This document shows positions 3,367 to 61,090 of a stretch of 64,000 bases of DNA, in pieces (positions within the stretch are counted from its first letter, which is position 1; each line of letters starts with the position of its first letter). Source of the DNA: Cyanidioschyzon merolae. Lineage: Eukaryota. Position numbers and translations under genes: made by a program. The stretch lies in NCBI GenBank assembly GCA_000091205.1, contig AP006500.2. One strand, given 5' to 3'. The notes beneath the pieces are model-generated. The model saw only the letters and a list, made by a program, of their open reading frames with translations. It did not search any database and was not told the origin of the DNA.

Positions 3367-4420
3367 GGGCGAAGCCGAGGACGGACCAGGAAGCGGGCCC
3401 GACGGCGCTGGAGGTGCAGAAGAACGCGTTTGTCGTTGGCGTGGATCCCGGGAACACCCACATCGTTACCATCGCAGCACCCAAGCGTGAGGAAGATGGC
3501 TCTGTCGGCAACTTACGTCAGAAAGACATAAGTCTGTTGAAGCTCTCATGAGCGAGATATTACCAAGAATCCGGTATAATGAATGCGACGGAGAAAAGTG
3601 AGACATCGAACTCAAGAGTGAAGGGAATTTGGAAGCGATCAGCCGGGTGACGAGCCGCGGAGCCGACATTGAAGCGTTTCGAGAGGTTATGAGCATTCAC
3701 GCAGCTGATGACGAGAGCTTTTGGAAAGAATGCACAAAGTTCAGGTGGGCTCGTCTGCGTATGAACCTGTACTGTAGGAAGCAGCGAGCATACGCCAGCT
3801 TTTTCAATCAATTGAGCGCCCTCAAGGAGGACATGAGCCAAAGGCTCGGAGTAGCATACGGGGCAGGGCGCTGGATGACCCAAAAAGGGTGTACACCAGC
3901 TCCAACGACAAGAACGTACAAGGAGTGCGCACATCGTTATGTCGAAATACCTTTAGATGAGTTTCGAACATCTCATACACACCACGAGCTGTGTTGTACA
4001 CTTCAGAGGGTCGCGATGGAGAAAAGCCAGCGGCTCGCTGACGGAAATGCAAATAGCAAGGAGGGCGAAACTTCGAGGACTACTCGCTTTGGTTCGTAAA
4101 ACTAATGATAGGAAGAAACGAATAGAGTTCCTGGACTGAGACTTTAACGCCGCCATCAGTATAAGGAAATGTGCAGTACTGGAAAGAAGACCCCCGGAGT
4201 TGGCGAGAGCCAACTTTGCGGGGCAACCTCTTAAAATGGAGTGATACGAGAAGAAGTTGAAACCAGTAGTAGGTGGCCAGTTGCTGAACGCCAGCACAGT
4301 CGTCTGCACATCATTGGGTAGACAATCGGTCTACGGCGGACGGTGTGAGAAACGCCACCATTGTACACTGGCTTTCCAGCGTTTCTCTTTTGCAAGGCGT
4401 TTGGTGGTGTTTCCAGAGAC
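3367..4420 (+). mobile_element. Fanzor/TnpB-like element, copy 2, inverted relative to copy 1 (heavily frameshifted pseudogene)
   Basis: The plus strand from 3406 encodes EVQKNAFVVGVDPGNTHIVTIAAPK, matching RuvC-I. ORF 3629..4099 carries VAYGAGRWMTQKG...IPLDEFRTSHTHHELCC. From 3957 the sequence encodes RIEFLD, and after a frame change FNAAISIRKCAVLERRPPEL. There are multiple frame breaks. A diverged version of the conserved tail lies at 4280-4400 as the reverse complement of the other copies' tails. Confidence 0.65.
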
Positions 4421-34351: not shown

Positions 34352-36742
34352 TCACGCCCGCGTCCGCAGTGCAGATGAGGATGACGATTCCGAAGTGCTC
34401 GCGCCCACGCTGCGTTCCTGATGCATAGAGACTGTTGCCGTAGAGTCTCTGTGGCAGGAATGTACCGGGTGCAGTTGGCACACGGTTCGATGCTTCGCGA
34501 GCGCTACCCGCGTATCATATGCGAACACACGAACGAACTCGTCGATCGCAAAAGTATTCAGTTCGTTGAGAGCGTACATGTTCCGAAACGCAGCAACGGC
34601 CCGACGGTAAGCGCACGGGTCATAGTAGAATCCCTGCAAGGCCAAGGAGTGGGCTCGTTGCATATCCAGCCTACCGTGCACGGCAGCAGCAGTCTGTGCG
34701 GAGCAGATTGAGCATGAAGCCTGGTCTGCCACAAAGGCACGAATGTAGGCCTCCTCGCCGATGCCGCAGCACACATCCGGTGGAAATCGAGCCATTAACG
34801 CAGCCAGTCGATAGACACCAAGGGCGTACAGCTTTGACAGCGACTGATGCGCATTGCGCACCAGCGCAATGATTCTGCTGATGCTCGGAATTTCACGCGT
34901 CAGCGGAAGTGGCGGTATCGAAGCAAGCAACTGTCCAGCATGTTTGATTTCCCGAACGGTTGGCGCAAGCTCCTTAAGATCGGTCAACACGGGGCGCTCA
35001 CCGTTGGTCCGCAGGGACGGGTGCGTCCACAGCGACGCGGCAGGCGCACTGCCGTCCGCCAGCGGGTGAGCAACAGCATCTGCAACTGACAATGCAGACG
35101 GCGCATGAGGTAAATCCCCCTGGTGATGCGACGCTTCGGATGCAGCGGATGCAGAAGCATTGGTCCTCCCTACAACCTTTTGTATTCCGGGTGTTTGCTG
35201 CGCAAACTGCTGGCAATGCGTCAGCGATCCCCTCTTCTGCTCAGCCTCGGTGCATTCCAGATGATTTCCTTGGAGCATGCGCTCGCCGCTGCGATTCCGC
35301 GCTGCTGAGCGCGCTGCCGGCGCCATAAACAAAGGTGACCAGGCCTCCTCTGGTTCAGTGCCCTGAGAATCGGTTCGCGAGCACCGCCGATCAACCGTTG
35401 CCGTCGCGCTTGTCTTGAGGCATACCCGCGAATACGGGTCCGTCATGTCAACAACGCTCGATTCCAGATTGGACGCATTTGTACAGAATGAACGATCGTT
35501 CTCTTGAACACAGAATCCGTGGACGGCGGCGACCATGAAAGCCTCTTCAGAAGCGCTCATCAACCCCTGTTCGCGTGGATGCGTTCCATGCGATACCGAA
35601 AAAACGGAACAGGCAGGATCCCCGACGTTTCCGGCATAGATGCGCGATAAATCTTGATCCATGCGGTGCGTGCTTTCCCATCCGGGGTATTCGCCAAGCA
35701 CAAAGTTTGCGTCCGTGGACGCAACCCGCTCGTCTTCGTTATCTTCGGCGGCGATCGTGCGATGGCTCACTTCACCGTAACCCGAGCTGGCCAGGGGCCA
35801 TGCTGAAAGCATTGGCATCCGCTCCCCCAGCCAGGCATCCTCAACATTGTCGTATAGCGTCTGATCCGCCATCAGACGATGCTCGCTCGACACCCCAGAG
35901 TTCGTGGTATTCGCCTGGTCATCCACGACAACGCTGTGGCAGCGATCCCTTGGCGATGAGTGCTCACCTTCATCGGCATCGTCCCCTTCTGAAGGAAAAC
36001 AAGTCCAGAGATTGGCTGGGAGTCTCGCAGATGCGTACGTTGTTTCTGATTGGTCCCCTCCCGGTACCGCCTGCTGATACTCGTGTAACGGTGCGAGACT
36101 GACTGCCGATGCGGAGCGCTGGAGTCTCCCGAATCGAGCTTGCTCGCCGCTGACGATGGGGCCCCTGCGACGCCGACCGCGACCCGGCTTACCCACGCCG
36201 CTGAGAGACCATGAAGCATCTCCAAACTGTGCCCAGGAAGCGCTCCGTGGAAGCGTATGCGTCGCACCGCGAACAGATACCCTAGTCTGGCTTCGGCTAC
36301 GGGCCAGCGAGCGCTCGCGCCCTTGAGGCTGCGTGATGCGGCGGTTCAGTGTTGCAGGTGTCGCACGACTACGACTGTTTTGAGCGCCAGTGCCGAACTG
36401 GCGACTTCTCCCAGCAGCGGATCCACGATCGGCTGCTTTGCGCACCTCATCTGTTGTCGGTGCTGAAGACGTTTCTTCCCCGTCCACGATCGGTCGCCGG
36501 TTCGTGGACGCACCCTGCGCGAAGCCTTTTCCGAAACCCCGGGGTGCCGCACTGCCACGGGTTGCGTTCACCGCCAAATCTCCGTAGGAGTAGGTCACCC
36601 CGTCGATCACAAGCGCAAGCTTCCCCTTCTTCCACTTGACCCCACAAGCGTTGCACAGTGTCTTGGCACCCGTAGGTCCCGCCCGCCACAGGGGCGTGTC
36701 GTTCGTCGAGCACGATATGCAACGCAAACTGTTCGAAACCAT
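34352..36742 (-). CDS. GATA-type zinc-finger transcription factor (N-terminal C-x2-C-x18-C-x2-C finger), 796 aa
   Basis: The N-terminus reads CISCSTNDTPLWRAGPTGAKTLCNACGVKWKKGK. This is a GATA finger with the TPLWR core and an 18-residue loop, the plant/fungal-type spacing. The rest is a Ser/Ala/Arg-rich low-complexity region. Confidence 0.8.
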   Translation of the reverse strand: MVSNSLRCISCSTNDTPLWRAGPTGAKTLCNACGVKWKKGKLALVIDGVTYSYGDLAVNATRGSAAPRGFGKGFAQGASTNRRPIVDGEETSSAPTTDEVRKAADRGSAAGRSRQFGTGAQNSRSRATPATLNRRITQPQGRERSLARSRSQTRVSVRGATHTLPRSASWAQFGDASWSLSGVGKPGRGRRRRGPIVSGEQARFGRLQRSASAVSLAPLHEYQQAVPGGDQSETTYASARLPANLWTCFPSEGDDADEGEHSSPRDRCHSVVVDDQANTTNSGVSSEHRLMADQTLYDNVEDAWLGERMPMLSAWPLASSGYGEVSHRTIAAEDNEDERVASTDANFVLGEYPGWESTHRMDQDLSRIYAGNVGDPACSVFSVSHGTHPREQGLMSASEEAFMVAAVHGFCVQENDRSFCTNASNLESSVVDMTDPYSRVCLKTSATATVDRRCSRTDSQGTEPEEAWSPLFMAPAARSAARNRSGERMLQGNHLECTEAEQKRGSLTHCQQFAQQTPGIQKVVGRTNASASAASEASHHQGDLPHAPSALSVADAVAHPLADGSAPAASLWTHPSLRTNGERPVLTDLKELAPTVREIKHAGQLLASIPPLPLTREIPSISRIIALVRNAHQSLSKLYALGVYRLAALMARFPPDVCCGIGEEAYIRAFVADQASCSICSAQTAAAVHGRLDMQRAHSLALQGFYYDPCAYRRAVAAFRNMYALNELNTFAIDEFVRVFAYDTRVALAKHRTVCQLHPVHSCHRDSTATVSMHQERSVGASTSESSSSSALRTRA

Positions 36743-36989: not shown

Positions 36990-38950
36990 ACGCTACCGGC
37001 AACGAGAAGGCCGCGAATCCGACGCCGCCACGGGCGATATTCGGAGGTGGTGGCGGCTGCGGCCGCCCGCCGTTGCCAGGATTTCTGGCGGTACGCCTCC
37101 CGGTCTACTTGGACTAGGCACCTGCTGCTGATTTTGTTTTCTGCTTATATGATATCACCTTAAGAGGTTGCCCGACAAAGCTGGCTCTCATTAGCTCCGG
37201 GGGTCGCTTAATCATCAACACGCATCTTTCTATATTGATAGCGGCGTTAAAGTCTCGGTTCACAAACTCTATACGTTGATTGCCGTCGGTAGTTGTACTC
37301 ACCAGTGCGAGTAGTCCAGGAACTTTTGCCCTGCTTTCCATTTGCTGTTTGGTCAGCGCTCCGTACTTTTTTATATCCTCAGAGTTCCACTGGCACTTTT
37401 GCATCTCGACCCTTTGGATTGTACACCTCGGCTCGTGGTGTGTATGTATGACGTTCGGAACTCATCTATCGGTATTGTGAGAAAACGGTGTGCGTACTCG
37501 TTGTACGCTCGTGTCGACGGAGCGGGCGTAGACTCTTTTTCGGACGCCCAGTGCCCTGATCCGTACGCTACTATAAGCCTTTGTCTCTCGTCTTCGTTCA
37601 GGGCACTCAACTGGTTGAAAAAGTTGGCAAATGCACGCTGCTTCCCATAGTATAAGTTCATGTGCTGACGAGCCCACCGGGCGGCTTGGTATACTCCTTT
37701 CACAGCTCCTCGTCATGAGCAGCGCGAAGTGGTATGAATTCTCAGAGGGCTCGAAAGTTCGCTCCGCGACTCGTCATTTTGCTGAACTCCTCCCTGCTTA
37801 CATCGAACTTCGGACTGATCTCTTTCATGATGCCGTAAAGGGCTGCGGAGTCGATTGTCACAAAATGTGCATTGATCTCGCATAACGGAACGACATGGAA
37901 GCGCTTACCCGGAAACGCAGCCATTCGTTTCTCCGACTCTTCATTTGCTTGCACACCTGGTTCCATCTCCGCCTTGCGTTCGAGTTCTCGGTCCAAAAAC
38001 ACGAAAGGGCGCAGGATTAGGCGATAGCATCTTTCTTCATCTTTTTTCAACGCTGGCATCTTTTTGTGCTCAGTTGACAAACCCTAGGACCGTGCGGCGC
38101 TCTTGGATGGCCACATGGAGTAGAGAAGCTTCATTCCTTCTCCTGCGTGACGTCTTCCTGTCGACGAATTCGATCTTCTGTTCATGCTGGCGATCGTCCG
38201 AAATGCCATTGATGATGGTCCGTATCCTTTTGCGAGAGAGGCGCGGGTAGAGTCCAAACATGGAACGTATCATGAAACGTTCGAGGTTCATGTTCAAATG
38301 GTTTTTCAGATTCGTGAGACACTTTTTAGACCCGTATTCATACATATTATCGTGACCCCTGTATCGAGTACTGTTGGAGCGGAATTTGGCGTAATTTTCG
38401 TGGAGGCCCTGCACTCGCTCATTTCTCCTCGACATTTCATATGTGCCCAGTATCAAGTGGCGAATGAAGGTCTTGTTGAAAAATTCCTTCGGAATCTCGG
38501 TTGTTTCCATATGCGTCACGTCGCGATTCGTCTCCCACACCAAATGCACGAGTCCTGAAGAACCGTTTCGAATGCTACTGGAGTAGGACGCCACACGCTT
38601 TCTGATAGTCTCGTCCATCCTTGTCTCGTACGGATCCTTGCAATGTCCAAGAAGACAGGGTTTCACTACCATCTCGATGCACTGTCGTCTTTCTTGCAGC
38701 CATTGACGTCTGGCCTCCTGCCTTAGCTTCTTCGTGTTGTCTCGTTCATCCGGGATCGGCTCTGTTTTCGTTTCTTTCCGTCAGCCGGCGACAGTGGTCC
38801 TCCAGGATCCTCCACTTCCATGTCCATAGCTTGCCTTTTTACTTTTGAAAAAGAACGCACTTTAGACACTTCTGCTATAGACCCCGGAAAATCACTTGAG
38901 TAGACTATACTGGAGATTAAAGTACAATGGAGATGAAAAACTATGCTTCG
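36990..38950 (-). mobile_element. Fanzor/TnpB-like element, copy C (RuvC core partly deleted; N-terminal extension retained)
   Basis: Minus-strand ORFs 37114..37404 (FVNRDFNAAINIERC = RuvC-III), 37371..37703 (VAYGSGHW...IPIDEFRTSY), 37742..38080 and 38070..38672 are homologous to the N-terminal ~400 aa of the 52-55 kb copy, at roughly 55% aa identity. For example, HENYAKFRSNSTRY...KKCLTNLKNHLNMNLERF aligns with HENYAEYRFERTRY...KKYLTNLKNHLTMYPERF. The flanking ends are homologous to copy A at both LE (38760-38950) and RE (36990-37130). The RuvC-I region is absent. Confidence 0.7.
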
Positions 38951-40628: not shown

Positions 40629-41807
40629 TTACACGGTTCCCGTCGGAACTGCGGCACTGTCATAAGCGCCGGGTTCGACGCTACCCAGTATACGGCCACG
40701 GCCTCGCGAGCGACGCGTTGTCGCTGCTCGATCTGGTCGATCGTCTGGACATCGCAATCGGGCAAGGAATACGTGGCGTTCTAGGGCATCATCTTCGTCA
40801 TCACCGCTTTGCCTGTATATTCGCGTCGAGTCCCGAGTCTCCGAGTCCGTGTCGGGCTCCAGCAATGGATCAGTGTAGCTGACTCGGGGCAACGTAGCAA
40901 CCGCCCGGGGTTCGCATCGTCTTGTCGGTGGCTCTGGTTGCTCCAAAGACGATTTTTCATCGGCCTTGCGTTGGGCTTGCCTCCTACCAGGCACCCTGGG
41001 CAGATGATCATCAATCGATCGCGACCGCAGCGTCTGCCTTGCGCGTGCTTGAACCGTATCTTGAAGCTTTTCGTGGTCCCCGGACATCTCCATACGAGAC
41101 GCACGCTGCAAATCATTCGTTCTCTGATGCATCCGACTGCGTATGTCACTTCGAAGCGACGACACAGCGTCTGGTGGAAGGACAGCACCAACCGCATGGG
41201 AGCGTTTGCGCATGCCGCTGCTTGCAACGTTATGCGGGGCGGAAAAAGCATGCCTGGGTCCCTCCAGTGCCTCTGTGAGTTTCTCTGGGCTCTTGTCTGG
41301 AATATCAGCGGCACCACTGGACACTTGTTCCCGAAGCTGTCGCGCTATGCGGGCACGAAAACGCCTGATCAGTTTCAGAGCGCGCGGTGAGTGACCACCT
41401 TTCGGAAAGAGTGCCACGTATTTCACGCCCGCCGGAAAGTGCCGCACGTATTCTAGGTCTCGCTCCAGCTGCGCCTTTTTCGAGTCATAGTCCGGAACGT
41501 CCTCCGGTCGTTCTTCCAGCAGGCGCTGAAGCTCGTTGCAGAGCTTGCGCTCCTCTCGCTTACGAATAGGAAGGTACTTACGCGTAATAGCATCCTTTTC
41601 GGACTGGCGTTTTCTTCTATGAAGTAGACGCTGCAGACTTTCAAGTTCTTGGATTTTGGCTGCCCGCGCACCGGTAGCAAGGTTCTCCCAGCGTAGGAGA
41701 CGCTCAAGTGCCCGAATGCGATTTCGAAGCGAGCGCGACCTCCGCTGAACCCCTTCCTCCAGTGCAAGAGCACCATCTTCGAAGAGTCCAACCATATCTA
41801 CCTTCAA
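40629..41807 (-). CDS. Coiled-coil basic protein, possibly an rRNA-processing Efg1-like protein
   Basis: A 392-aa Arg/Glu-rich coiled-coil ORF. The segment DLEYVRHFPAGVKYVALFP is reminiscent of the Efg1 family motif. The assignment is from memory and is weak. Confidence 0.35.
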   Translation of the reverse strand: MKVDMVGLFEDGALALEEGVQRRSRSLRNRIRALERLLRWENLATGARAAKIQELESLQRLLHRRKRQSEKDAITRKYLPIRKREERKLCNELQRLLEERPEDVPDYDSKKAQLERDLEYVRHFPAGVKYVALFPKGGHSPRALKLIRRFRARIARQLREQVSSGAADIPDKSPEKLTEALEGPRHAFSAPHNVASSGMRKRSHAVGAVLPPDAVSSLRSDIRSRMHQRTNDLQRASRMEMSGDHEKLQDTVQARARQTLRSRSIDDHLPRVPGRRQAQRKADEKSSLEQPEPPTRRCEPRAVATLPRVSYTDPLLEPDTDSETRDSTRIYRQSGDDEDDALERHVFLARLRCPDDRPDRAATTRRSRGRGRILGSVEPGAYDSAAVPTGTV

Positions 41808-48411: not shown

Positions 48412-51400
48412 GTGTCGTTCGCGGTGGCAATGGCGTTCGTTACTTTCGGGGTCGTGTCTGGAGGCACCGGGCGGCAACCGCTAGCTGACAGGTCACCGGC
48501 GTTCTTGAATCAGCACCCAAGAAAGACAAGCCGATCGGTGCGGTGTCGACGGCGAAGATTCTCGCGTAAAGTGTCTCGAAGATGTCTGCTGAAGCTCTGC
48601 AGCGTTGCTGAACGACAGTCATCCGACTCGGTGCGACGAGAGCAGGGACAGAAGCGGGGCAGCAGTAGCAGCGCCAGCAGCCGTGATGAGCGCTATGCGC
48701 GGAACGCAGCGGAACAGCGCCAGGCAAGCGACTCTGTATCGACGGAGACGCGAGCCCGAGTGTCTCGAGCGCTCCTACAGGGCGCGCAGGGGGTGGGCCT
48801 CGGCCTCTACTGGATTGCTCGGCAAGCGGTGCGTGTATGTGTGCCGATGGCTCGCTCGGCGTTTAGCCAGCTGTCAACGCTTGTGCAAGACCATTCCAGT
48901 CGCGCGTTCACCTCAGTGGGGGTCCAATCACAGCCAGAACCGCATCATAAGCCGTACGTTGCATCTGAAGCGGACGAGGCAGCGCGGGCGCGGCCTAACG
49001 ACACAGCCGTTGGTGCGGATCGTGCTCAGCGGCGATCTAATCATAAGAAACGGGGGCCACGTTCAGGTCCACCATCGGGAGCGAATGCTCCAGAGCAAGC
49101 AGACGAGATGTCAGCTCGACTGCGGAGAAAGTACCTTCGATCGTTTGGGAGCATTCCGGAAGTTGTACTCTTTGACCTTGTCGCCGAATGTGAAATGCGA
49201 AAGCAATTTGCGCTACCAGAGGAGACTCCATCAAATATGTCGCTTTTAGGGCAGCGAGCCTGCTATATCCCGTATGAGCTGCAGCGCATTATTTTCGACG
49301 AAATTTTGACGCCAGATTTTGCCGCCTCTGACGCTGACCGCGATCTGTTTCAGAGCAGCAATACATCCATTCCGCTCGGCGCCAAACACACGTTGCGAGC
49401 TACAGACGGCTCAGCGGCGTCCACCCCGAGAGCACCCGAGGTCGCTGTGCCGGTTCCCGTTCATATCATGGATTCGCTGGTGGCGGCTGTGGCACCCTGG
49501 AGCGCCGGCACTGGGAGTCCGGGGAGCGCACCAAAGGCGGCAAATTCGCCGAATGATTGGAGTCAAACTGCGACAGCGCCTCGAGTCGGGGTCCAGGGCG
49601 AGTCGCCGGCATCTACTTCCAACCTGGACGATATGGTACCTGCAGCAGCAGCAGCAGCGGCAGCAGCAGCAGGGCAAGTATCCGTGGATTCTTCCGCCCG
49701 CAGGGGCAGCATGCTGTACATCCCGATATCGGCGCTCGGGAGCTTGTGGCAAGCCATCTCGGCAATGAGTGCGGGCGGACGCAAACGGCGCGAGGAGGCG
49801 CAACGTATTCGTACGTACTCGAATGCCGCCGACGCTATGGCTCGCGAGGATGCCGTTATGGCGGGTCTCGCTGGCGCAGACGGTGGAAGCACCATGGCCT
49901 CGGCATTTGCAACAGCGAGCGCCATTATGGCGAGCACACCGACGCGATCGCCATCGATACCCGTGCAGGGCGCCGAGGCTGGAACTACCGCTAGTACGCG
50001 CGAAACGGAACAGAAGGCCTCGCGTCCAACAAATGGATCCGTGGAATCAATCGAGGTATTGAGCAGACCGCAGGCATCGGCTGCCAACTTGGGCAATCAG
50101 CAGAAGCGAGATCGCACGGAGTCGAAAGAGGGGACGGGTGCGAAGCAGAGCGCACCAGTGAACCCGTCATCAGCGTCTGCTGCATCCGCTGCAGCTACCA
50201 GTACAGAAGTAGCTGCAGCGGATGCAGCAGAAAGTCCTCTGTCGAAAGACAAGACGAGAAACTGGTGGTCGACGCTTTTCTCGTTTACTTGGCCACGCCC
50301 GCGGAACGCTGTCGACTCGGGATCTGCGACTGCGACTAACTCGGAGGATCATGCAATTGAATCCATCCAGCGCCTGTTGCTTTCACGACATTACGGGGCA
50401 GGCGCTGGCCATGGCCCTGTGGATGCTGCCGTCTTCGATGAGCTCGTCGATCGAGTGGAGCAGCTGACGCTTCGCGCTGCAGCAGAAGCGGCCATGGCGA
50501 TTCGCACGCGAAAACAAGCCATTGCATTTCTGGAAGAGGTAGGTGTGGCACCGTTGTTGAATGCACTGAGCATGACGGACTCGCTGCAGCTCTCGAGGCC
50601 GGATGCTGGACGCCGCAGGAACAGCAACAGCAACACCAACCTAGACGATGAAACCGCATCACAGAGAAAGCGCCCACAACAAGAACAGCAACGTGAAGCC
50701 GCCTTCACGGTATCCCTAGCTGTGGCTGCACTCGCAAATCTGACCAACGTCTTGCCTCGCTGCAAACCGCAAATCCTTCGTTATCCAGGCCTCTTGGATG
50801 GTCTGTTGCGTATCTTGGAAGCACCGGTAGCCGGAGAGTCATGGGAGATGCAAGGCAAGTGGAGCGCATGTATGCTCATCGGCACCCTGATGATGGATGC
50901 TGCCACGAGCGATCGTGCCCTCTTCTTCCGGAATCGTCGACTGGTTCGCGTGCTCGAGTCCATGGCAGGCGGCACACGGGTCGGCTACCCGGAGGATGTT
51001 GCACGGGCATCGCGTCGGGCGCTCGCTTGTCTGGGCGTGCATCACTGGAGGCCGCGCGTTCGAGGCCAGCGCGGTTTGCGCATCCTTGCACTTGACGGAG
51101 GTGGCACTCGGGCGCTCATGTCTTTCGAGATTCTGAAGCACCTAACCAAATTGACTGGCTGCCAGTTGCATGAAATGTTCGATATCATTTGCGGAACCTC
51201 GACGGGGGCGATTATTGCCGGCTCGTTGGGGATTCGCCGGCGTCCAGTTGAGGAGGTCGAGAGCCTCTACCGTGAACTAATCGGCAAAATTTTCGCCAAA
51301 AAGCTGAGCAGTGCGCCGAAAATGTTGCTCACTCGGGCCTACTACGATACGGACTTGTTTGAGAGCATTCTGAAACGTGAGGCAGGCTCATTGCGGATGA

Positions 51401-52284
51401 TTGATTCCACCATGGACCGGGATATGAACTACGTGTTCTTCGTAAGCTCCGTGATGAATCGACGTCCGCACCAGCTGCATCTGTTTCGAAACTATTGCCA
51501 CGCACCAGGCCAGGAGTCCAGATACCCAGGGACTGTGGATGCAACCCTATGGCAGGGTATGCGGGCCTCGTCGGCGGCTCCGACGTTTTTTTCGGAAATT
51601 GTATTGAATGGACTCATTCACGCAGATGGAGCTCTGGTTGCGAATAATCCCGCAGGGGTGGCAGCGCACGAGGCACGCCGCTTGTTCCCGAATGTGCCTA
51701 TCGAGCTCTTGGTGAGCGTGGGAACCGGAGTCGCCGAGAAGACTAGCCCTCTATCGCCGCTAAGCACCACGGACAGTGGTGTGTCCACGGGCACCAGAGA
51801 GGGCAGCGGTGGCGACGGCGGTGCCTCAACCGAGAGCGAAGCTGCGAGTGCGCTTCGTGAAGCTGCCACGACTTCGGCGATTTCCGCAAGTGGTGGTGAT
51901 GGTGCAGATGCCGCAGCTGCTGCCGTCCCGAGCCGAATGAGCTGGAACGACGTGATCAACTCGATTGTGGACTCTGCAGTCGGCACCGAGAGTGTGCATC
52001 ACATCCTGGAAGATGTGTTGCCTGCAGATGTTTATTTTCGATGCAATCCAGAGATCAGCGTGATGAATATTGATGAGGTTCGTCCCGGCAAGCTCATGGA
52101 AATGATTCGATGTGCACAGGACTACATCGCCGCGAATGCTGATCGCTTTGATGAGTTAGCGGCACGGCTGCGCCCGAAAATGCCCCAGAATTTACTAGAA
52201 CGGATCCGTTTTGAGCTGCAACAGGAGGCCAGTCTGATTCTCGACTTGGACGATGCACGGGAAGGGCCACTTCCTGCGCTTTAG
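48412..52284 (+). CDS. Patatin-like phospholipase (iPLA2-like) with long N-terminal low-complexity and ARM/HEAT-like region, 1290 aa
   Basis: The patatin catalytic motifs are the oxyanion-hole LALDGGGTRAL, the nucleophile elbow GTSTGAI (GxSxG) and the catalytic Asp in IHADGALVANNPA (DGA/G). They are preceded by repeats such as LANLTNVLPRC...LLDGLLRILEA. The N-terminal ~600 aa is low complexity, and the true start may be downstream of 48412. Confidence 0.85.
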   Translation: MSFAVAMAFVTFGVVSGGTGRQPLADRSPAFLNQHPRKTSRSVRCRRRRFSRKVSRRCLLKLCSVAERQSSDSVRREQGQKRGSSSSASSRDERYARNAAEQRQASDSVSTETRARVSRALLQGAQGVGLGLYWIARQAVRVCVPMARSAFSQLSTLVQDHSSRAFTSVGVQSQPEPHHKPYVASEADEAARARPNDTAVGADRAQRRSNHKKRGPRSGPPSGANAPEQADEMSARLRRKYLRSFGSIPEVVLFDLVAECEMRKQFALPEETPSNMSLLGQRACYIPYELQRIIFDEILTPDFAASDADRDLFQSSNTSIPLGAKHTLRATDGSAASTPRAPEVAVPVPVHIMDSLVAAVAPWSAGTGSPGSAPKAANSPNDWSQTATAPRVGVQGESPASTSNLDDMVPAAAAAAAAAAGQVSVDSSARRGSMLYIPISALGSLWQAISAMSAGGRKRREEAQRIRTYSNAADAMAREDAVMAGLAGADGGSTMASAFATASAIMASTPTRSPSIPVQGAEAGTTASTRETEQKASRPTNGSVESIEVLSRPQASAANLGNQQKRDRTESKEGTGAKQSAPVNPSSASAASAAATSTEVAAADAAESPLSKDKTRNWWSTLFSFTWPRPRNAVDSGSATATNSEDHAIESIQRLLLSRHYGAGAGHGPVDAAVFDELVDRVEQLTLRAAAEAAMAIRTRKQAIAFLEEVGVAPLLNALSMTDSLQLSRPDAGRRRNSNSNTNLDDETASQRKRPQQEQQREAAFTVSLAVAALANLTNVLPRCKPQILRYPGLLDGLLRILEAPVAGESWEMQGKWSACMLIGTLMMDAATSDRALFFRNRRLVRVLESMAGGTRVGYPEDVARASRRALACLGVHHWRPRVRGQRGLRILALDGGGTRALMSFEILKHLTKLTGCQLHEMFDIICGTSTGAIIAGSLGIRRRPVEEVESLYRELIGKIFAKKLSSAPKMLLTRAYYDTDLFESILKREAGSLRMIDSTMDRDMNYVFFVSSVMNRRPHQLHLFRNYCHAPGQESRYPGTVDATLWQGMRASSAAPTFFSEIVLNGLIHADGALVANNPAGVAAHEARRLFPNVPIELLVSVGTGVAEKTSPLSPLSTTDSGVSTGTREGSGGDGGASTESEAASALREAATTSAISASGGDGADAAAAAVPSRMSWNDVINSIVDSAVGTESVHHILEDVLPADVYFRCNPEISVMNIDEVRPGKLMEMIRCAQDYIAANADRFDELAARLRPKMPQNLLERIRFELQQEASLILDLDDAREGPLPAL

Positions 52285-52500
52285 GGGATGGACAAGCCAC
52301 CACCGCCGTTCTAAGTCGAACGACGCCAACGGTATACAGTAGTGGCGACCGGCGCCCTAGACGAAACGTCTCCAACTGACGTGCAGACGCCTCCCCGCCT
52401 TTTTGGACCGGCCACCTACTACTGCTTCCAACTTTTTCTCGTATAGTTCGACTTTGAGAGGTTGTCCAATAAAGTTCCCTCTTCATGACTTTGGAGGTGT
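52285..52500 (-). ncRNA. Predicted omega-RNA (guide RNA scaffold) region of Fanzor-like copy A, overlapping the C-terminal codons and the 3-prime tail
   Basis: The ~200 nt at the 3-prime end of the element is far better conserved at the DNA level between copies (2290-2410, 52285-52480, 56160-56280, 59385-59500) than the ORFs are. It contains the block gcgtctgcacgtcagttggagacgtttcgtctagggcgcc and the block gccactactgtacaccgttggcgtcgttcgac (minus-strand reading). In TnpB/Fanzor systems the omega-RNA maps here. Confidence 0.4.
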
Positions 52501-54794
52501 TTTCTCCAGCACCGCACATCTCCGTATATTGATAGCGGCATTAAAGTCTCGGTTCACAAATTCCATACGTTTCTTCCCATTGGTAGTTGTACTTACTAGT
52601 GCACCTAGTCCTCGCACTTTCGCTCTACTTTCCATTTGCTCCTCCGTCAGCGGTCCATACTTTTTCATATCCTCAGGGCTCCTCTGGAAATTTTCCATAT
52701 CCACTCTCTGAAGTGTACAACCCAGCTCATGGTGTGTGCAGGACGTTCGAAACTCATCTACAGGTATTGTAACAAAACGCCTTGCGCACTCCTTGTACGT
52801 TCTTGTCGTTGGAGCTGGCGTAGTTCCTTTTTGGGTCTTCCAGCGCCCTGCTCCATACGCTATTACGAGCCTTTGAGTCTTGTCTTCTTTGAGGGCGCTC
52901 AACTTATTGAAAAAGTTCGCGAATGCCCGCTGCGTCCCACCGAATAGATTCATTCGCAAACGAGCCCACCGGGGCTTGATATACCCCTCCCACAGCGCAT
53001 CCCAATGGGCAACACGAACTTCCATGAATTTCCGAAAAGCTTCAAAGTCCGCGCCTCGGCTCGTCACCTCGCTCGAAGATTCCAGGTGATCCTTCATTCC
53101 TGCATTCCATGCAGCAATTTTCTTCCTTGCATTCATTATACCGGACTCTCGATAGTATCTTGCTCTCGAGAACCTCAACAAATGCATGTCTTTCAGACGT
53201 AAGTTGCCGTCAATGCAATCTTCCGCACACTTTGGTGCTGCGATGGTAATGATATTCGTGTTCCCAGGGTCCATGCCAATGACAAAGTCGTTATCCTGCA
53301 CTTTCTGCGCCGCAGGACCCGCCTCGTTCTTTTCTTCATGCTTCGTCGCGTCAAGCATAAAGGCGTTATCCTGCACCTCCTGCATCACAGGATCCGCCTC
53401 CTTCCCAACTTCATCCTTCGTCACATCAACGATAAAGTCGTTACCCTCAATCTCCTGCGCCACAGGATGCTCCTCTTTGTTTTCTTCATGCTTCGCCGCG
53501 TCAACGACAAGCTTGTTATCCTCCACCTCCTGCGTCGCAGGTTCCGCCTCCTTCTCATCTCCATCCTTCGCCACGTCAACGAGAAAGTCATTATCCTCCA
53601 CCTCCTGCGTCGCAGGATACACCTCTTTGTTTTCTTGATCCTTCGTCACGGGTGCAGCCGAGTGAGGGACTGGCCGATCTCTCTTCAACCGCCGATAGTG
53701 TGCACACAAGGCTACTCCATCGGTTTCGATCATCCCAGTGAACAACTTTTGCTTGCTCACTCTCAGGCGTTTGAAATCGAAGATGTTCTTCCAGTACGTC
53801 TTCCGGTTTTCACCGGAGAATTCCTCCCTGCTGACACTGAACCCCGGACTGATCTCCTTAAAGATGCCGTAAAGGACGCCGGAGTCGATAGTCTCAAAAC
53901 TTGAATTGATCCTGGACAACGGATCAGCGTGGGAGCGATTCTCCAGAAGCGCAGCCTTCCCTCTCTCCGACTATTCGTTTTTTCCACACCCGGCTCCATG
54001 TCGGCCTTGCGTCCGTGCTTTCGGTTCAGAAACATGAAACAGCGCAGGATTAGTTGATAAAATCTCTCTTCGTGTTTTTTCATATTAGGTAATTTTCCTG
54101 TTGGACTGAGTAGCCCCAAGACCGCACGGTGCTCTTGAATAGTCGCGCGGATTACGGAAGCTCCATTTGTGCTCCTGCGTGATGTCTTCTTATCGACAAA
54201 TTCGATCTCATCTTCATACTTTCGATCGTTCGTGATGCCGTTGATCATCCCCCATATTCCTTTGCGAGAGATGCCCGGGTAGAGTGCAAACACGGCGCAT
54301 ATCATGAAACGTTCCGGGTACATAGTTAAATGGTTCTTCAGATTCGTGAGGTACTTCTTCGGCCCGTAGGCGTAAATACACGAGTCAACCCTGTATCGGG
54401 TACGCTCGAAGCGGTATTCGGCGTAGTTTTCGTGGAGAGCGTGCACTAGCACATTTTCCTTCCGCGCTTCCCCTGTACCAAGCATCAGGTGACGAATAAA
54501 GGTCTTGTGGAAAAACTCGTCTGGAATCTAGACCGTTTCCATGTGCGCCACATCGCGATACATCTCCCTCGCCAAATGCATCAGTCCTGACGACGTCTTG
54601 ACAATACTCTTGGAGTACGAGTCGACACGTTTTTTGATAGCGTCCCGCAACTTTTCCTTGTAGGGATGCTTGATATGTCCAAGAAGAAAGGTTTTCACCA
54701 CCATCTCGTCGTACAGCCGTCTTCCTTGCCGCCTTCGACGTAGGGCCTTACCGTTTCGGTCCTTCTTCTCTTCTTTTTGTTCTGGACTCGGCAC
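52483..54794 (-). pseudogene. Fanzor-like RNA-guided endonuclease homolog (TnpB-like RuvC nuclease with N-terminal extension), disrupted by one in-frame stop and one frameshift as assembled
   Basis: Motifs as for the parent element. D-x-NAA-x-NI is the TnpB/Cas12 RuvC-III signature and G-x-D-x-G-x-T/N the RuvC-I signature. The lesions could be real or could reflect unannotated introns or assembly error. Confidence 0.7.
53270..53650. repeat. About six units of a ~63-bp tandem repeat inside the copy A ORF (encodes acidic 21-aa repeats EVxDNxFxVDxxKxExxKEAxPA)
   Basis: Visible as repeated ...tcaacga(c/g)aa(a/g)(g/c)t(c/t)(g/a)tt(a/c)tcct(g/c)cacctcctgc(g/a)tc(a/g)caggat(c/a)c(g/a)cctcc.. units. 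The last unit runs straight into the RuvC-I motif [13 protein letters not shown]. Confidence 0.8.
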
Positions 54795-55238
54795 TATATT
54801 TGGGTTTTTTTGGCAGCCGGCGACACTGGGCCTCCAGGATCGTCGACTTGCTATTTACTAGCTTTTCCGTTTTTTAGTTTTTTTTTGAAAAAGAACACTC
54901 TTTGAACGCTTCTTTTATATTCTACGAATAAACACTTGACTAGACTTGTTTGAGGGCTGGAACAAAAACGAACTGAAAGACTGTACCTGGCTAAGACCTC
55001 AACAGAAAACCAACTTTTTACAGCTGAACACCACGCTATTGATACCAATCGAGTTTCCCTTTAACGGCGACGCGGCGCTTTCGGAACTCGATCCGCCGCA
55101 TCTCCCGGCTGGATCCTGCTGCGGTTCAGAGACCGCAAGTCGAAAAGTGTGTGGCTGTAGTTGAAGGCAAATATGGTGCACCACGCGGCAGTAAACAACA
55201 GAAATAGGTTGTGAGACGCGACAGTCGTGCGATGAAGT

Positions 55239-56030
55239 GTGTGGCGGCTTCTGCAGCGCTCGTCGTCAGCCACTCTTTTAAAACATATTGTCGTTCTTCT
55301 ATCAACTGTGTTTGCAGAAGACTCTACTGTAAAACGTTTGACCAGGTGTGATTCGAAACGATCGGAAATGTTGCGCAAAGTATCCTTAGTGTTCCTGGTG
55401 ACCCTGCTCTACGTGCTCGCTGCAGTTGTGTCGAAGCCGGTGCGTGGGCTCTCTCAGAGCAGCACGATTGCCGAGCTGCTCGCTGCGTCTCCAAGCTCGT
55501 ACCTGCAGAACGCGCTCACAAGCGGTGCGTTTCTCGTGAATAACTCAGCCGGAAGTATTCAGTTGTTTGACGTTACACAGAACTCGTTGTTAACGAGCGT
55601 GGGCCTCTCTACCCTGATATCCACGTTGAACAAGTGCGGTATCCAGGAGCTGCACGTGCAGACGGACGCGATCGAGTACGCGTACGTTGTTGAGGGTGAG
55701 GGCACTTTCACGCTGTGGTCGTCTAACGGCTCGGTGGTATTGTTGAAGGCCCCCTTGAAGCCTGGCGACGTGGCGATTATTCCAGCCGGCTGGCCGCACT
55801 TTTTCACCGGGTCCGAGACGTCCACGACGCCGCTGGTCTTTGTCTCGACATTCACCAGCGGAGAGCCACAGGTTTATTTCCTGGCTGGTGCTGGGAATCT
55901 ATTCGCGAACGTGCCATCCGAGGTCGGTAGCAGTCTGTTTAATGTTACCGCGTCGCAGTACGGATCGTTTTTCAGAGCGGAATCGACTGTGGGTGTCGTC
56001 TTTAATGAGACCTGTTTGGGGAATGCCTGA
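55239..56030 (+). CDS. Cupin/germin-like protein with an N-terminal hydrophobic anchor or signal
   Basis: A 263-aa ORF with a hydrophobic stretch LVFLVTLLYVLAAVV. Cupin motif-2 is matched by PGDVAIIPAGWPHFFTG (G-x5-P-x-G-x2-H-x3-G/N). A motif-1-like region reads GIQELHVQTDAIEYAYVVEGEG. The gene sits between two Fanzor-like elements. Confidence 0.5.
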   Translation: MWRLLQRSSSATLLKHIVVLLSTVFAEDSTVKRLTRCDSKRSEMLRKVSLVFLVTLLYVLAAVVSKPVRGLSQSSTIAELLAASPSSYLQNALTSGAFLVNNSAGSIQLFDVTQNSLLTSVGLSTLISTLNKCGIQELHVQTDAIEYAYVVEGEGTFTLWSSNGSVVLLKAPLKPGDVAIIPAGWPHFFTGSETSTTPLVFVSTFTSGEPQVYFLAGAGNLFANVPSEVGSSLFNVTASQYGSFFRAESTVGVVFNETCLGNA

Positions 56031-56159: not shown

Positions 56160-58640
56160 TAGCGAGCCCCTTTCAAAACAAAAACGCTGCCGCTATCAGT
56201 ACAAAAGTGGCTACCAACGCGCCCTAGACGAAACGTCTCCAACGGACGTGCAGACGCTTCCCAGTCTTTTTGGACCGGCCACCTACTACTGCTTCCAACT
56301 TTTTCTCGTATAGTTCGACTTTGAGAGGTTGTCCAACAAAGTTCTCTCGTGTCCACTCTGGAGGTCTTTTCTCCAGCATCGCACATCTCCGTATATTGAT
56401 TGCAGCGTTAAAGTCTCGGTTCACGAATTCCATACGTTTCTTGCCATCGTTCGTTGTACTCACCAGTGCGAGTAATCCCCGAACTTTCGCCCTCCTTTCC
56501 ATTTGCTCTTCCGTCAGCGGTCCGTACTTTATTATATACTCAGGGCTCCTCCGACGCTTTTCCATCTCAACCCTTTGAAGTGTGCACCCCAGTTCATGGT
56601 GTGTAAACGATGTTCGGAACTCATCTATTCGTATCGTAACGAAACGCCTTGCGCACTCCTTGTACGTTCTTGTCGTTGGAACTGGCGTGCTCCCTTTTCC
56701 GGGTACCCAGAGCCCTGCTCCATACGCTACTACAAGCCATTGGCTCGTCCCCTTTGAGGGTGCCCGACTCATTGAAAAAGTTGGCAAATGCACGCTGTTT
56801 TCCGCAGTACAGATTCATATGCAGACGAGCCCACCTGAGCTTCGCGTACTCTTCACACACCTCCTCGTCATGAGAAACGCGAATTTTCATGAATTTCGGA
56901 AGAAAAAAAGAAAGTTCAATCGACGGCTCGTCACGTGCCTGATCGCTTCCAGATTCTCCTTCACTCTTGCGTTCCATTTCTCACTTTGATTCCTCGCATT
57001 CATCATTGCTTGTTCTCTGTACTAACTCTCTCTCGAGAACTTTAAACGACGCATGTCGCTCTGGCATAAGTTGTCGTCAGCGCCATCTTCCAAACGTTTG
57101 GGTGCTACGATGGTTATTACATTCGTGGTCCCGAGGTTAAGGCCGACGACAAGATCGTTATCCTGGGGATTATACGTGCCAGGGCCCGTCTTCTTGTGTT
57201 CGTGCTTCGGCAAGGGCGACAATGTAGATGAGGTAGGACGATCTGCCTTCAAGCGCTGATAGTGTACACATATGGATTTCCCATTGTAATCGATCGTCCC
57301 CGTGAATGCCATTTTTTGCTCGTTTTGAGGCTCTTGAAATCGAAGATATTCTTCCAGTACGTCTTCCGGTTTTCACCGGAGAATTCCTCCCTGCTGACAC
57401 TGAACACCGGACTGATCTCCTTAAAGATGCCGTAAAGGACGCCGGAGTCGATAGTCACAAAACTTGAATTGATCCTGGACAACGGATCAGCGTGGGAGCG
57501 ATTCTCCAGAAGCGCAGCCTTCCCTCTCTCCGACTATTCGTTTTTTCCACACCCGGCTCCATGTCGGCCTTGCGTCCGTGCTTTCGGTTCAGAAACATGA
57601 AACAGCGCAGGATTAGTTGATAAAATCTCTCTTCGTCTTTTTTCAAATTAGGTAATTTTCCTGTTGGACTGAGTAGCCCCAAGACCGCACGGTGCTCTTG
57701 AATAGTCGCGCGGATTACGGAAGCTCCATTTGTGCTCCTGCGTGACGCCTACTTGTCGACAAATTCGATCTCATCTTCATGCATGCGATCGTTCGTGATG
57801 CCATTGATAATTGCCCAGAATCCTTTGCGAGAGATGCCCGGGTAGAGTGCAAACACGGCGCATATCATGAAACGTTCCGGGTACATAGTTAAATGGTTCT
57901 TCAGATTCGTGAGGTACTTCTTCGGCCCGTAGGCGTAAATACACGAGTCAACCCTGTATCGGGTACGCTCGAAGCGGTATTCGGCGTAGTTTTCGTGGAG
58001 AGCGTGCACTAGCACATTTTCCTTCCGCGCTTCCCCTGTACCAAGCATCAGGTGACGAATAAAGGTCTTGTGGAAAAACTCGTCTGGAATCTAGACCGTT
58101 TCCATGTGCGCCACATCGCGATACATCTCCCTCGCCAAATGCATCAGTCCTGACGACGTCTTGACAATACTCTTGGAGTACGAGTCGACACGTTTTTTGA
58201 TAGCGTCCCGCAACTTTTCCTTGTAGGGATGCTTGATATGTCCAAGAAGAAAGGTTTTCACCACCATCTCGTCGTACAGCCGTCTTCCTTGCCGCCTTCG
58301 ACGTAGGGCCTTACCGTTTCGGTCCTTCTTCTCTTCTTTTTGTTCTGGACTCGGCACTATATTTGGGTTTTTTTGGCAGCCGGCGACACTGGGCCTCCAG
58401 GATCGTCGACTTGCTATTTACTAGCTTTTCCGTTTTTTAGTTTTTTTTTGAAGACGGACGCGTTTCTTACGTGTCTACTATAAACCACGAAAAACACTTG
58501 ACTAGATATGTTTGAGGTGTGAAACAAAAACGAACTGAAAGACTGTACTTGGCTACGACCTGAACGGAAATCCAACTTTTTTCGGTAGAACAACACGCTA
58601 CTGATCAGGATGGCGTTCCCCTTCGACGAAGGCATGCGCA
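56160..58640 (-). mobile_element. Fanzor/TnpB-like element, copy B (rearranged, internally deleted)
   Basis: Minus-strand ORF 56224..56793 carries VAYGAGLW...IRIDEFRTSFTHHELGC...FVNRDFNAAINIRRC and the full C-terminal tail ...GKRLHVRWRRFV. The fragments 57022-57682 and 57749-58357 are near-identical to 54000-54900 of copy A. ORF 58091..58357 is 88/88 aa identical to ORF 54528..54794. Confidence 0.75.
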
Positions 58641-59384: not shown

Positions 59385-59650
59385 CGAGGCACCCCTGGAA
59401 AGAAACGCCTTTCGAAAGTCGAACGGCGCCAGCGGTGTACAGTAGTGGCGAGTGGCCCGCCCTAGAAATGACGTCTGCAACTGACGTGCAGACGCATCCA
59501 AAATAAGATACCACCTCAGGAAATTTCCTTATACCTCCTCTACGGTATTCGTCGGCGAGCTACGTGGAAGTTCGTCTACGATTGTTGTGATCTCTGAGCG
59601 CAGCACTGCGGAACCCTTGGCACCAATTACTGATGAGGTTGTTGATGGGA
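59385..59650 (-). mobile_element. Isolated 3-prime tail fragment of the Fanzor-like family (copy D; no adjacent nuclease ORF)
   Basis: The stretch ctggaaagaaacgcctttcgaaagtcgaacggcgccagcggtgtacagtagtggcgagtggcccgccctagaaatgacgtctgcaactgacgtgcagacgcatcc is near-identical to the tails at 2290-2410 and 52285-52400. Similarity decays by ~59650, and no RuvC-encoding ORF is seen between 59650 and 59880. Confidence 0.65.
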
Positions 59651-59880: not shown

Positions 59881-61090
59881 ATGCAAGCCCTATTCGTTTC
59901 TGTTCCGCTGTACCAGGAAAGACATATTGTTTGCGCGCGCGCTGCAACTCGAGCACCGTTCCCGCTGTGTACCGAACATGACAGGTGCTTCGCAGCTCGA
60001 TACCGTCACCGCTGTCACCATCCGCTGCCCGTGGGGGTGCAGCGTTCGCCTGTAGTGCGCCGGCATCGTATGCCGCATCTTCGTATGGGCCCGAAACAGT
60101 CGCAGATCGCCGTGATCACTGGCTCGTCCTCTGGGGTCGGTCTGTATGCAGCTCGCGCTCTGATCAACAAGGGCAACTGGAACATCGTCATGGCATGTCG
60201 TGACGTCGACCGGGCGGAACGTGCAGCAAACAGCGTGAACCTTCCAAAGGACGCCTATACAGTGCTGCATTGTGATCTGGCAGATTTCGCCTCTGTGTTG
60301 AAGTTTGTGAGAGCGCTATCGAGTGTGGCGCGCATCGATCACCTGGATGCCCTGATCTGCAATGCCGCAATATGGCATCCGCAGGACAAGAAACCGCGTT
60401 TCACGGTGGGCGGCATCGAGGAAACCATGCAGGTTTGCCATCTGAGCCATTTGCTTCTCTGTGGGGAGCTGTTGCCGAAGCTGAAAAAATCGCGCAGGCG
60501 CATTGTGTTTCTGACGACTCAGACACACTCGCCGAATTCGTTGCCGGGAAAGATCCCCCGCTGGCTCGTCTCGGGGATTCGTCTAGTCTAGCCGCGGGGC
60601 TTGGTCCGCAGACGACGGACATGGTAGAAAGTGGCCCGTTTGAGCCCACAAAAGCTTTCAAAGACGCCAAAGCCGAGAACGTGTTGACAATGAAGGCGCT
60701 CAGTGATCGATACGGCCGCGACGGGGTGACCTCTGTGGCGATTTTCCCGGGATGTGTCGCCGACAGCAACCTCTTCCGCGAAAAGCGTGGCTGGTTCCGC
60801 TACGTATTCTTCCCGATTCTTCAGAAGTACATCACTCGGCAATACTTTCCCAATGATGAGGCCGGACGCCGTGTAGCCGAAATGGCGACCCAGGGACAGT
60901 TCTCGGACTCGGGCTCGTATTATCAGTGGCGTGGCAAATATACGGATGGGGGATAGAAGACGAAACCGCAGGTTATTGAACCAACGTACGAAATCGACAA
61001 GGCAGATCAGCTTTACGAACTGAGTCTTGATCTGATCGACCAGGCTTTACGGAGGCGAGGCCTCAAGTCGACTACCTTGGTCCCTGTCTA
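59881..61090 (+). CDS. Light-dependent NADPH:protochlorophyllide oxidoreductase (LPOR, SDR family). As assembled it has a 1-nt frameshift in a C5 run at ~60553-60557 and an in-frame TAG at 60957-60959. The mature domain probably starts near 60100.
   Basis: Frame 1 reads IAVITGSSSGVGLYAARALINKGNWNIVMACRDVDRAERAA...YTVLHCDLADFASVLKFV...LICNAAIW. Frame 2 reads GKDPPLARLGDSSSLAAGLG...AFKDAKAENVLTMKALSDRYGRDGVTSVAIFPGCVADSNLFREKRGWFRYVFFPILQKYITRQY. Together these align colinearly with plant and algal POR (ITGASSGLG...VIMACRD...YT.MHLDLAS...NAAVY...YKDSKVCNMLTMQE...YPGCIATTGLFREH..LFP.FQKYIT.GY). After the TAG the frame continues KTKPQVIEPTYEIDKADQLYELSLDLIDQAL, which aligns with the POR C-terminal helix. 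Confidence 0.8.

Follow-up and report, generated by a model that had tools for sequence, protein, structure and literature searches.

Analysis of a 64,000-nucleotide (nt) stretch of Cyanidioschyzon merolae contig AP006500.2 (assembly GCA_000091205.1; this whole stretch is called the window below) raised the question of what is encoded ahead of the RuvC nuclease part of a mobile element, copy A, on the minus strand at about 52 to 55 kb. A first-pass annotation had described this part as a conserved N-terminal extension of about 400 amino acids (aa), of unknown function and not assignable to a REC or WED domain, and had proposed a lineage-specific accessory domain. The results presented here indicate instead, with a probability of roughly 0.9, that the region is the recognition (REC) lobe of an RNA-guided endonuclease of the Fanzor1 type and is made up of WED and REC domains. 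The missing assignment was supplied by alignments to the Fanzor1 proteins PpFz1 and SpuFz1, by a TDG motif and by a full-length model that superposes on SpuFz1 and GtFz1.

Copy A contains three open reading frames (ORFs) on the minus strand, 54528-54794 (88 aa), 53763-54485 (240 aa) and 52483-53919 (478 aa), and all four peptides quoted in the first-pass annotation were recovered in them. Translation in all frames revealed that the three ORFs are fragments of a single reading frame. The repaired frame encodes 770 aa, with the RuvC-I aspartate (GMDPG) as residue 509; about 125 of the 508 residues ahead of it belong to a 25-aa tandem repeat, and the folded part comprises about 380 aa. Pfam and PDB sequence searches with the repaired copy A as a single sequence yielded nothing useful. 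A search of 5.8 billion proteins identified an unbroken 752-aa ORF (P0001) on a 49-kb Joint Genome Institute (JGI) metagenome contig, which is 67% identical to the repaired copy A over its whole length (BLASTP), as well as the distant homologs P0028 (603 aa, 35% identity) and P0029 (563 aa, 27% identity). Each of these proteins combines the N-terminal region with the RuvC part in a single ORF; together with the profile and Foldseek matches described below, this supports the fusion to a Fanzor-type RuvC nuclease. Comparison of the family profile with PDB sequences revealed PpFz1 (E value of 2.7e-21), SpuFz1 (5.2e-15) and GtFz1 (4.5e-10), and the next match had an E value of 0.4. The PpFz1 alignment covers profile positions 144 to 451, from the KKYxTNLKN helix and the FxGTxETDG strand into RuvC-I, and therefore includes the second half of the region in question. 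A profile of the N-terminal part only matched PpFz1 with an E value of 5e-4 and SpuFz1 with an E value of 0.24.

With a shallow alignment limited to close relatives as input, AlphaFold2 (AF2) gave a predicted local distance difference test score (pLDDT) of 55, with confident N-terminal helices only. The top Foldseek matches of this model were SpuFz1 and GtFz1, and they were weak (SpuFz1, E value of 4e-3). The AF2 model of P0001 from a diverse 76-sequence alignment reached a pLDDT of 82.9 and a predicted template modelling (TM) score of 0.81. This model comprises a strand at residues 28 to 36, helices from 46 to 284, strands at 301 to 303, 350 to 358 and 362 to 370, a disordered stretch from 385 to 469, and RuvC strands from 479 onward. 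Foldseek comparison with the PDB revealed SpuFz1 (E value of 1.3e-16; TM score of 0.72, normalised on the 590-residue target) as well as PpFz1 and GtFz1 (E values of about 1e-14 to 1e-15; TM score for PpFz1 of 0.50), with Cas12 proteins far behind. Because RuvC and TNB account for only about 263 residues of the model, most of the N-terminal lobe must superpose too. The domain order and nearly identical numbering are common to the P0001 model and SpuFz1, in which H21, T22 and K25 lie in WED, R96 to R268 in REC, and R291 to Y345 again in WED (PMC10432273). A WED strand, an enlarged helical REC domain and further WED strands, spread over about 350 to 450 residues ahead of RuvC-I, were thus found in the arrangement of a Fanzor1 REC lobe.

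The homologs share the N-terminal motifs ETVVK, FIRQLxLG, RxxGDxNIYxYGxKKYxTNLKN, FxTIDxxxLxGIxKE and FTGxIETDG, and of the 29 N-terminal residues most conserved in the family, copy A retains 26. In the first WED strand, K34 is conserved in 99% of the 76-member alignment. The family pattern x-E-T-V-V-K matches L-H21-T22-C-N-K25 of SpuFz1 in an alignment made by eye and without statistics; H21, T22 and K25 touch the first guide nucleotides in SpuFz1 (PMC10432273). The REC domain carries FIRQLxLG and RxxGDRNIYxxGxKKYxTNLKN. The C-terminal WED strands include FETID and the TDG motif (IETDG), which is characteristic of the WED domain of Fanzor1 (PMC10711439), and T358, D359 and G360 are conserved in 93%, 100% and 99% of the 76 members, respectively. 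The family TDG strand aligns with the FxGTxxTDG strand of PpFz1 and SpuFz1. In copy A, TDG lies within 53686-53748, between 53763, where the first-pass annotation had ended the feature, and RuvC-I, and is inside the region of about 400 aa.

The nuclease half carries the corresponding Fanzor signatures. The RuvC triad D484, E656 and D725 (P0001 numbering) is invariant or nearly so in the family, and all three residues are present in copy A despite its broken ORF. The RuvC-I aspartate column, which aligns to SpuFz1 D383, is invariant, and the adjoining proline is nearly invariant. The glutamate of VDEFRTS is likewise invariant and pairs with SpuFz1 E541 in DEYKTS (LDEYKTSSVCPRC); D383 and E541 are among the catalytic residues of SpuFz1 (PMC11423790). 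The positions D383, E541 and D606 of SpuFz1 were numbered with an offset of 394 taken from the maltose-binding protein fusion chain. DPG and the alternative RuvC-II glutamate, located just ahead of the zinc-finger/TNB segment, have been described as the "molecular fingerprints" of Fanzors (PMC10711439). The cysteines that normally mark the spacing of this alternative glutamate are absent.

The lobe consists, in order, of a short basic tail, the first beta-strand of WED, a helical REC domain that interrupts WED and measures about 240 aa, and the remaining WED strands with TDG. If it works like the solved Fanzor1 complexes, the WED strands would hold the first guide nucleotides (PMC10432273, PMC11423790), WED and the N-terminal end of a REC helix would read the transposon-adjacent motif (TAM) on duplex DNA, and REC would line the channel of the guide-DNA heteroduplex. 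The WED-RuvC loop would then start unwinding, and the downstream RuvC domain would cut (PMC10432273, PMC11423790). Intact relatives may accordingly be expected to form such RNA and DNA contacts and to be active. A nearly invariant RxxGDRN stands at the start of a long helix (residues 140 to 171) and pairs with the TAM-reading residues Q129, Q130 and N133 of SpuFz1 in a weak, non-significant alignment; as a putative TAM-reading site, it is a lead only. The basic tail of copy A, visible as KKDRNGKALRRRRQGRR, is probably a nuclear import signal and resembles the N-terminal nuclear localisation signals validated in other Fanzors (PMC10530073). The family consensus at this place is RPDRxxKLxxRK. 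The ancestral start lies farther upstream than 54794: VDDPGGPVSPAAKK is encoded at 54797-54847 in a different frame, and an upstream DPGG segment is in frame in P0020 and P0026.

Several observations weigh against the assignment to Fanzor1. Pfam detects solely a (Cas12f1-like) TNB domain, in 21 of the 76 members, and leaves the N-terminal part unmatched. HMMER aligns no solved Fanzor1 protein to roughly the first 140 residues, which are assigned from the structural scores of the whole chain and from a short matching motif. The modelled structure is that of the homolog P0001, not that of the decayed copy in the window. Moreover, the two CxxC motifs of a CCCC zinc finger between RuvC-II and RuvC-III (52546-52755) were found in none of the 76 family members. 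A single cysteine column is common in this interval of the alignment, and a distant relative, P0080 (857 aa), retains CxxC...CxxC. A CCCC zinc finger is present in the TNB/NUC of SpuFz1 and of ISDra2 TnpB (PMC10432273), but Yoon et al. (2023) ascribe it to "many", not all, TnpBs and Fanzors (PMC10711439). The zinc finger is therefore not strictly defining, and its loss marks a variant rather than exclusion from Fanzor1.

A second peculiarity is the acidic repeat between WED and RuvC, with a consensus of roughly PATQEVxDNDFxVDxxKxExxKEA. Each unit is a copy of the segment that directly precedes the RuvC-I strand (NDFVIG). Close homologs carry between 1 and about 6 units; the repeat is absent from P0028 and P0029. 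The stretch is predicted by AF2 to be disordered (pLDDT of <50), and the WED-RuvC linker measures 114 aa versus a family median of 27. What is unusual here is thus the repeat, restricted to the lineage of the window, and the missing zinc finger of the whole family, not the REC lobe itself. Both features, together with the unwinding residue that the WED-RuvC loop bears in GtFz1, SpuFz1 and PpFz1 (PMC11423790), could be taken to mean that the region is the REC lobe of a derived Fanzor1 subfamily with a shifted mechanism, in which TAM reading, unwinding or regulation could differ. However, not all TnpBs and Fanzors are described as having the zinc finger, as stated above, and the disordered repeat, which most family members lack, could be neutral. 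A shifted mechanism is considered unlikely, although it is the strongest of the alternatives. A related scenario is equally tentative: the family may represent a distinct Fanzor1 lineage, found almost only on metagenome contigs, that lost the TNB zinc finger and in which the sub-lineage of the window acquired 25-aa acidic repeats, in variable number, in the unwinding WED-RuvC loop. If this holds and the changes are functional, the engagement of target DNA by the REC lobe would be altered.

The distribution of the region was determined with an N-terminal-only profile of 320 positions, built from the exact homolog segments and scored against 1.84 billion cluster representatives. It matched 770 clusters at an E value of ≤1e-3, 417 at ≤1e-10 and 161 at ≤1e-30. 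The full-length matches among the best 150 listed are about 600 to 650 aa long and carry the region at about residues 20 to 345. In the 76 full-length members, a median of 373 residues (range, 288 to 458) precedes the RuvC-I aspartate, so Fanzor homologs do carry a region comparable to that ahead of D383 in SpuFz1. Because it occurs family-wide at the same position and with similar length, the region is an integral and widespread part of the family, not a lineage-specific add-on. Many close homologs (P0001, P0003-P0009 and others) bear a weak precomputed Pfam match, PF26935 (DUF8286), and a literature search on DUF8286 found nothing.

These data also bear on the accessory domain of unknown function that had been placed ahead of a complete TnpB/Fanzor core. 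Such a domain would explain why a single sequence finds no Pfam or PDB sequence match and why the region greatly exceeds in length what precedes RuvC in bacterial TnpB (8h1j has 362 residues in total), but it fits neither the 770 clusters nor the constant position and length. Every Fanzor1 requires the WED strands and the TDG motif, and these lie in the region itself, which leaves no separate complete core behind it; between it and RuvC-I there is only the disordered repeat linker and no second WED-REC unit, and the whole chain superposes on SpuFz1 with a TM score of 0.72. An accessory domain is therefore very improbable.

The fragmentation of copy A could suggest that one or more separate upstream genes, for a transposase or a partner protein, for example, merely adjoin the nuclease ORF, as the region is split into 88-aa and 240-aa ORFs apart from the 478-aa ORF. 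The stop codon and the frameshift that split it (Table 1) are, however, absent from copy C and P0001, which is uninterrupted at the position corresponding to 53971-53972 and encodes one 752-aa ORF. The distant homologs are single ORFs as well, and in the AF2 model WED is built from strands on either side of the supposed boundary. Separate genes are hence still less probable than an accessory domain. Two further lesions of copy A are another frameshift upstream of 54794 and, at 52483-52485, a premature stop. Its limits were taken from the extent of BLASTN similarity to copies B and C, to the copies at 2.3 to 4.3 kb and to the metagenome locus L001 (5728-8424), and its ends are also visible in end alignments across copies.

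Table 1. Coordinates of the Fanzor1 element features in the window
Feature	Position	Strand	Basis or remark
Copy A, Fanzor1-bearing element, about 2.8 kb, one decayed ORF	52297..55071	-	BLASTN
Basic N-terminal tail (KEEKKDRNGKALRRRRQGRR), candidate nuclear localisation signal	54705..54794	-	Translation
First WED beta-strand, YDEMVVKTF (family motif ETVVK)	54687..54713	-	AF2 strand E28-36
Helical REC domain, residues 46-284	53941..54659	-	AF2 helices, pLDDT mostly 85-97
In-frame stop, HMETV(stop)IPDEFF	54528-54530	-	Same stop in copy B; Thr in copy C
Frameshift, 2 nt left of one codon, between ...GVEKTN and SERGKAALL...	53971-53972	-	
C-terminal WED part, residues 288-372	53677..53931	-	AF2 strands 301-303, 350-358, 362-370
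Five tandem 75-nt units, 25-aa acidic repeats, WED-RuvC linker	53272..53651	-	Repeat families D6/D8
RuvC-I catalytic Asp, GMDPG (Fanzor "DPG" signature)	53269..53271	-	GMDPG spans 53263-53277
RuvC-II catalytic Glu, VDEFRTS, alternative position typical of Fanzors	52753..52755	-	
RuvC-III catalytic Asp, NRDFNAAINI	52546..52548	-	Aligns to SpuFz1 D606
Conserved element 3' end overlapping ancestral ORF end, candidate omega-RNA (reRNA) scaffold	52297..52400	-	
Copy B, N-terminal half	57236..58623	-	93.7% identical to copy A, same stop codon
Copy C, N-terminal half	37784..38906	-	73% nucleotide identity to copy A

The least probable explanation, a host gene fragment captured or transduced by the transposon, can practically be dismissed: eukaryotic DNA transposons do take up host fragments and the window copies are all decayed, but copy A (51800-55600) matches nothing within the window except other element copies, the profile matches carry the region at the N terminus of Fanzor-sized ORFs, it is conserved together with the nuclease half down to 27 to 35% identity, and no host family having the region without RuvC occurred among the best 150 matches. 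The accessory domain, the separate upstream gene and the captured fragment were all rejected on the evidence given for each.

Selection on the REC lobe was studied by aligning copies A, B and C with the DNA of the intact homolog (L001), counting codons in the intact frame and calculating the ratio of nonsynonymous to synonymous substitution rates (dN/dS) according to Nei-Gojobori with 1000 bootstrap replicates. For the N-terminal region of A versus C (294 codons), dN/dS was 0.46 with a bootstrap 95% confidence interval (CI) of 0.33 to 0.66, and none of the 1000 replicates reached 1. The high similarity of the two copies reported in the first-pass annotation was borne out, with a measured aa identity of 60% over these shared codons in place of about 55%. 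The comparison of A with P0001 (341 codons, 65% aa identity) gave 0.62 (95% CI, 0.46 to 0.86), and that of C with P0001 (297 codons, 56% aa identity) gave 0.58 (95% CI, 0.41 to 0.82). In the RuvC half, the three pairs (201 to 273 codons, 64 to 81% aa identity) gave dN/dS values of 0.20 to 0.31 (CI, 0.13 to 0.48). The N-terminal values are significantly below 1 in all three pairs, yet above those of the RuvC half, indicating weaker constraint. The folded region was thus under past purifying selection, as had been proposed, the value for A versus C not being near 1. Some of the divergence must be neutral decay after inactivation. Because only pseudogenised copies remain in the window, the conservation of the lobe reflects selection during the activity of the element, not a present function of the locus.

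All copies of the element in the window are decayed, and none is intact. The claim that A, B and C are full length did not hold: copy C lacks 744 nt, copy B lacks 303 nt, and copy A is disrupted. At least five dispersed, diverged copies with defined ends lie within the 64 kb, which places the nuclease, as expected of a Fanzor, in a mobile element of a eukaryotic genome. Comparison of the element ends across copies made no terminal inverted repeat or target-site duplication apparent, a dedicated search for either not having been made. Copy B spans about 56.2 to 58.6 kb (56200-58623). Compared with copy A (52335-55061), its N-terminal half has a dS of 0.07, while its C-terminal half is 78% identical with a dS of about 0.6. 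From this pattern, copy B is a mosaic, or else an A-like sequence that was already dead was re-copied in part. Gene conversion or the duplication of part of the segment is suggested, and not two insertions independent of each other. Since its N-terminal half is 94 to 97% identical to copy A and shares the stop codon, copy B is not an independent witness.

Copy C (37093-38906, about 37.1 to 38.9 kb) aligns with copy A (53818-54946 versus 37784-38906) across 1136 nt at an identity far above chance. Its 744-nt deletion fuses ...SREEFSK to (M)TSRGANF... and removes the C-terminal WED strands through RuvC-I. The identical junction (REEFSK / [M/V]TSRGA[N/D]F) was found in P0020 on an unrelated contig, so that copy C is part of a deletion derivative that has been propagated. 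This type would be a nuclease-dead derivative that was presumably mobilised in trans. At 2306-3365 and 3390-4338, two element 3' halves form a head-to-head inverted pair about 25 nt apart; each contains the RuvC part and one repeat unit, and their identity to copy A is 73 to 84%.

The 3'-terminal 100 nt or so are kept in five copies: 52297-52400, 56160-56265, 2300-2410, 59395-59500 and, in L001, 8320-8432. RNAalifold predicted three hairpins, one of them with a 7-bp stem (CGTTCGA/TCGAACG), and compensatory changes occur in only 3 of the 29 pairs. The hairpins fit the three-stem reRNA shape reported for Fanzor1, but covariation is minimal, and the 3' end is a candidate omega-RNA. A solo 3'-end fragment at 59406-59499, with no ORF attached, is 91% identical to 2312-2404. 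It resembles the "ghost" omega-RNA loci that stand alone and have been mentioned for SpuFz1.

The host genes of the window are eukaryotic and include those for a GATA zinc finger protein (34352-36742) and the rRNA-processing protein Efg1 (40629-41807). A patatin-like phospholipase of 1290 aa that contains long low-complexity regions is encoded at 48412-52284, a cupin_1 protein at 55239-56030 between copies A and B, and a short-chain dehydrogenase at 59881-60591. In the element cluster, GC content amounts to about 50%, versus 55 to 60% elsewhere.

A recognition lobe is expected in every Fanzor1, so no new domain or function is needed to account for the region, and the window copies are dead. 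WED, REC and TDG can now be annotated in a Fanzor1 family whose N-terminal half is undescribed by Pfam. The family provides many diverse Fanzor1 sequences without a zinc finger, including the intact 752-aa ORF, and may be of interest for mining compact RNA-guided nucleases.

Comparison with known systems revealed the closest overall resemblance in architecture to the solved Fanzor1 proteins. SpuFz1 from Spizellomyces punctatus (PDB entries 8GKH and 9CEU-9CEZ) has the same bilobed fold, about 380 residues ahead of the RuvC-I aspartate and the same order of WED strand, REC and WED strands; the H/E-T-x-x-K first strand, FxGxIxTDG, DPG, the glutamate of DE[YF][KR]TS and the aspartate of RDxN align. 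Sequence identity is only 13 to 15%, and SpuFz1 differs in having the CCCC zinc finger and in lacking the acidic tandem repeat in the linker. PpFz1 from Parasitella parasitica (9CF0-9CF3) is the best sequence match, alignable from the KYxxNxKxH helix of REC via WED into RuvC, but it is larger (about 720 modelled residues) and has extra insertions and a zinc finger. GtFz1 from Guillardia theta (9CER) is 14% identical and contains a longer variable WED insert (73 aa, PMC11423790). ISDra2 TnpB (8H1J) and Cas12f were also compared: the REC domain of TnpB is much smaller, that of SpuFz1 exceeding it by 136 residues (PMC10432273), and TnpB has D-hydrophobic-G instead of DPG and the glutamate in its canonical position (PMC10711439). 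It is because of this much smaller TnpB REC that the region looks like an extension of about 400 aa; it is one only relative to bacterial TnpB, as the solved Fanzor1 proteins have the same 380 or so residues ahead of RuvC-I (SpuFz1 D383, PMC11423790).

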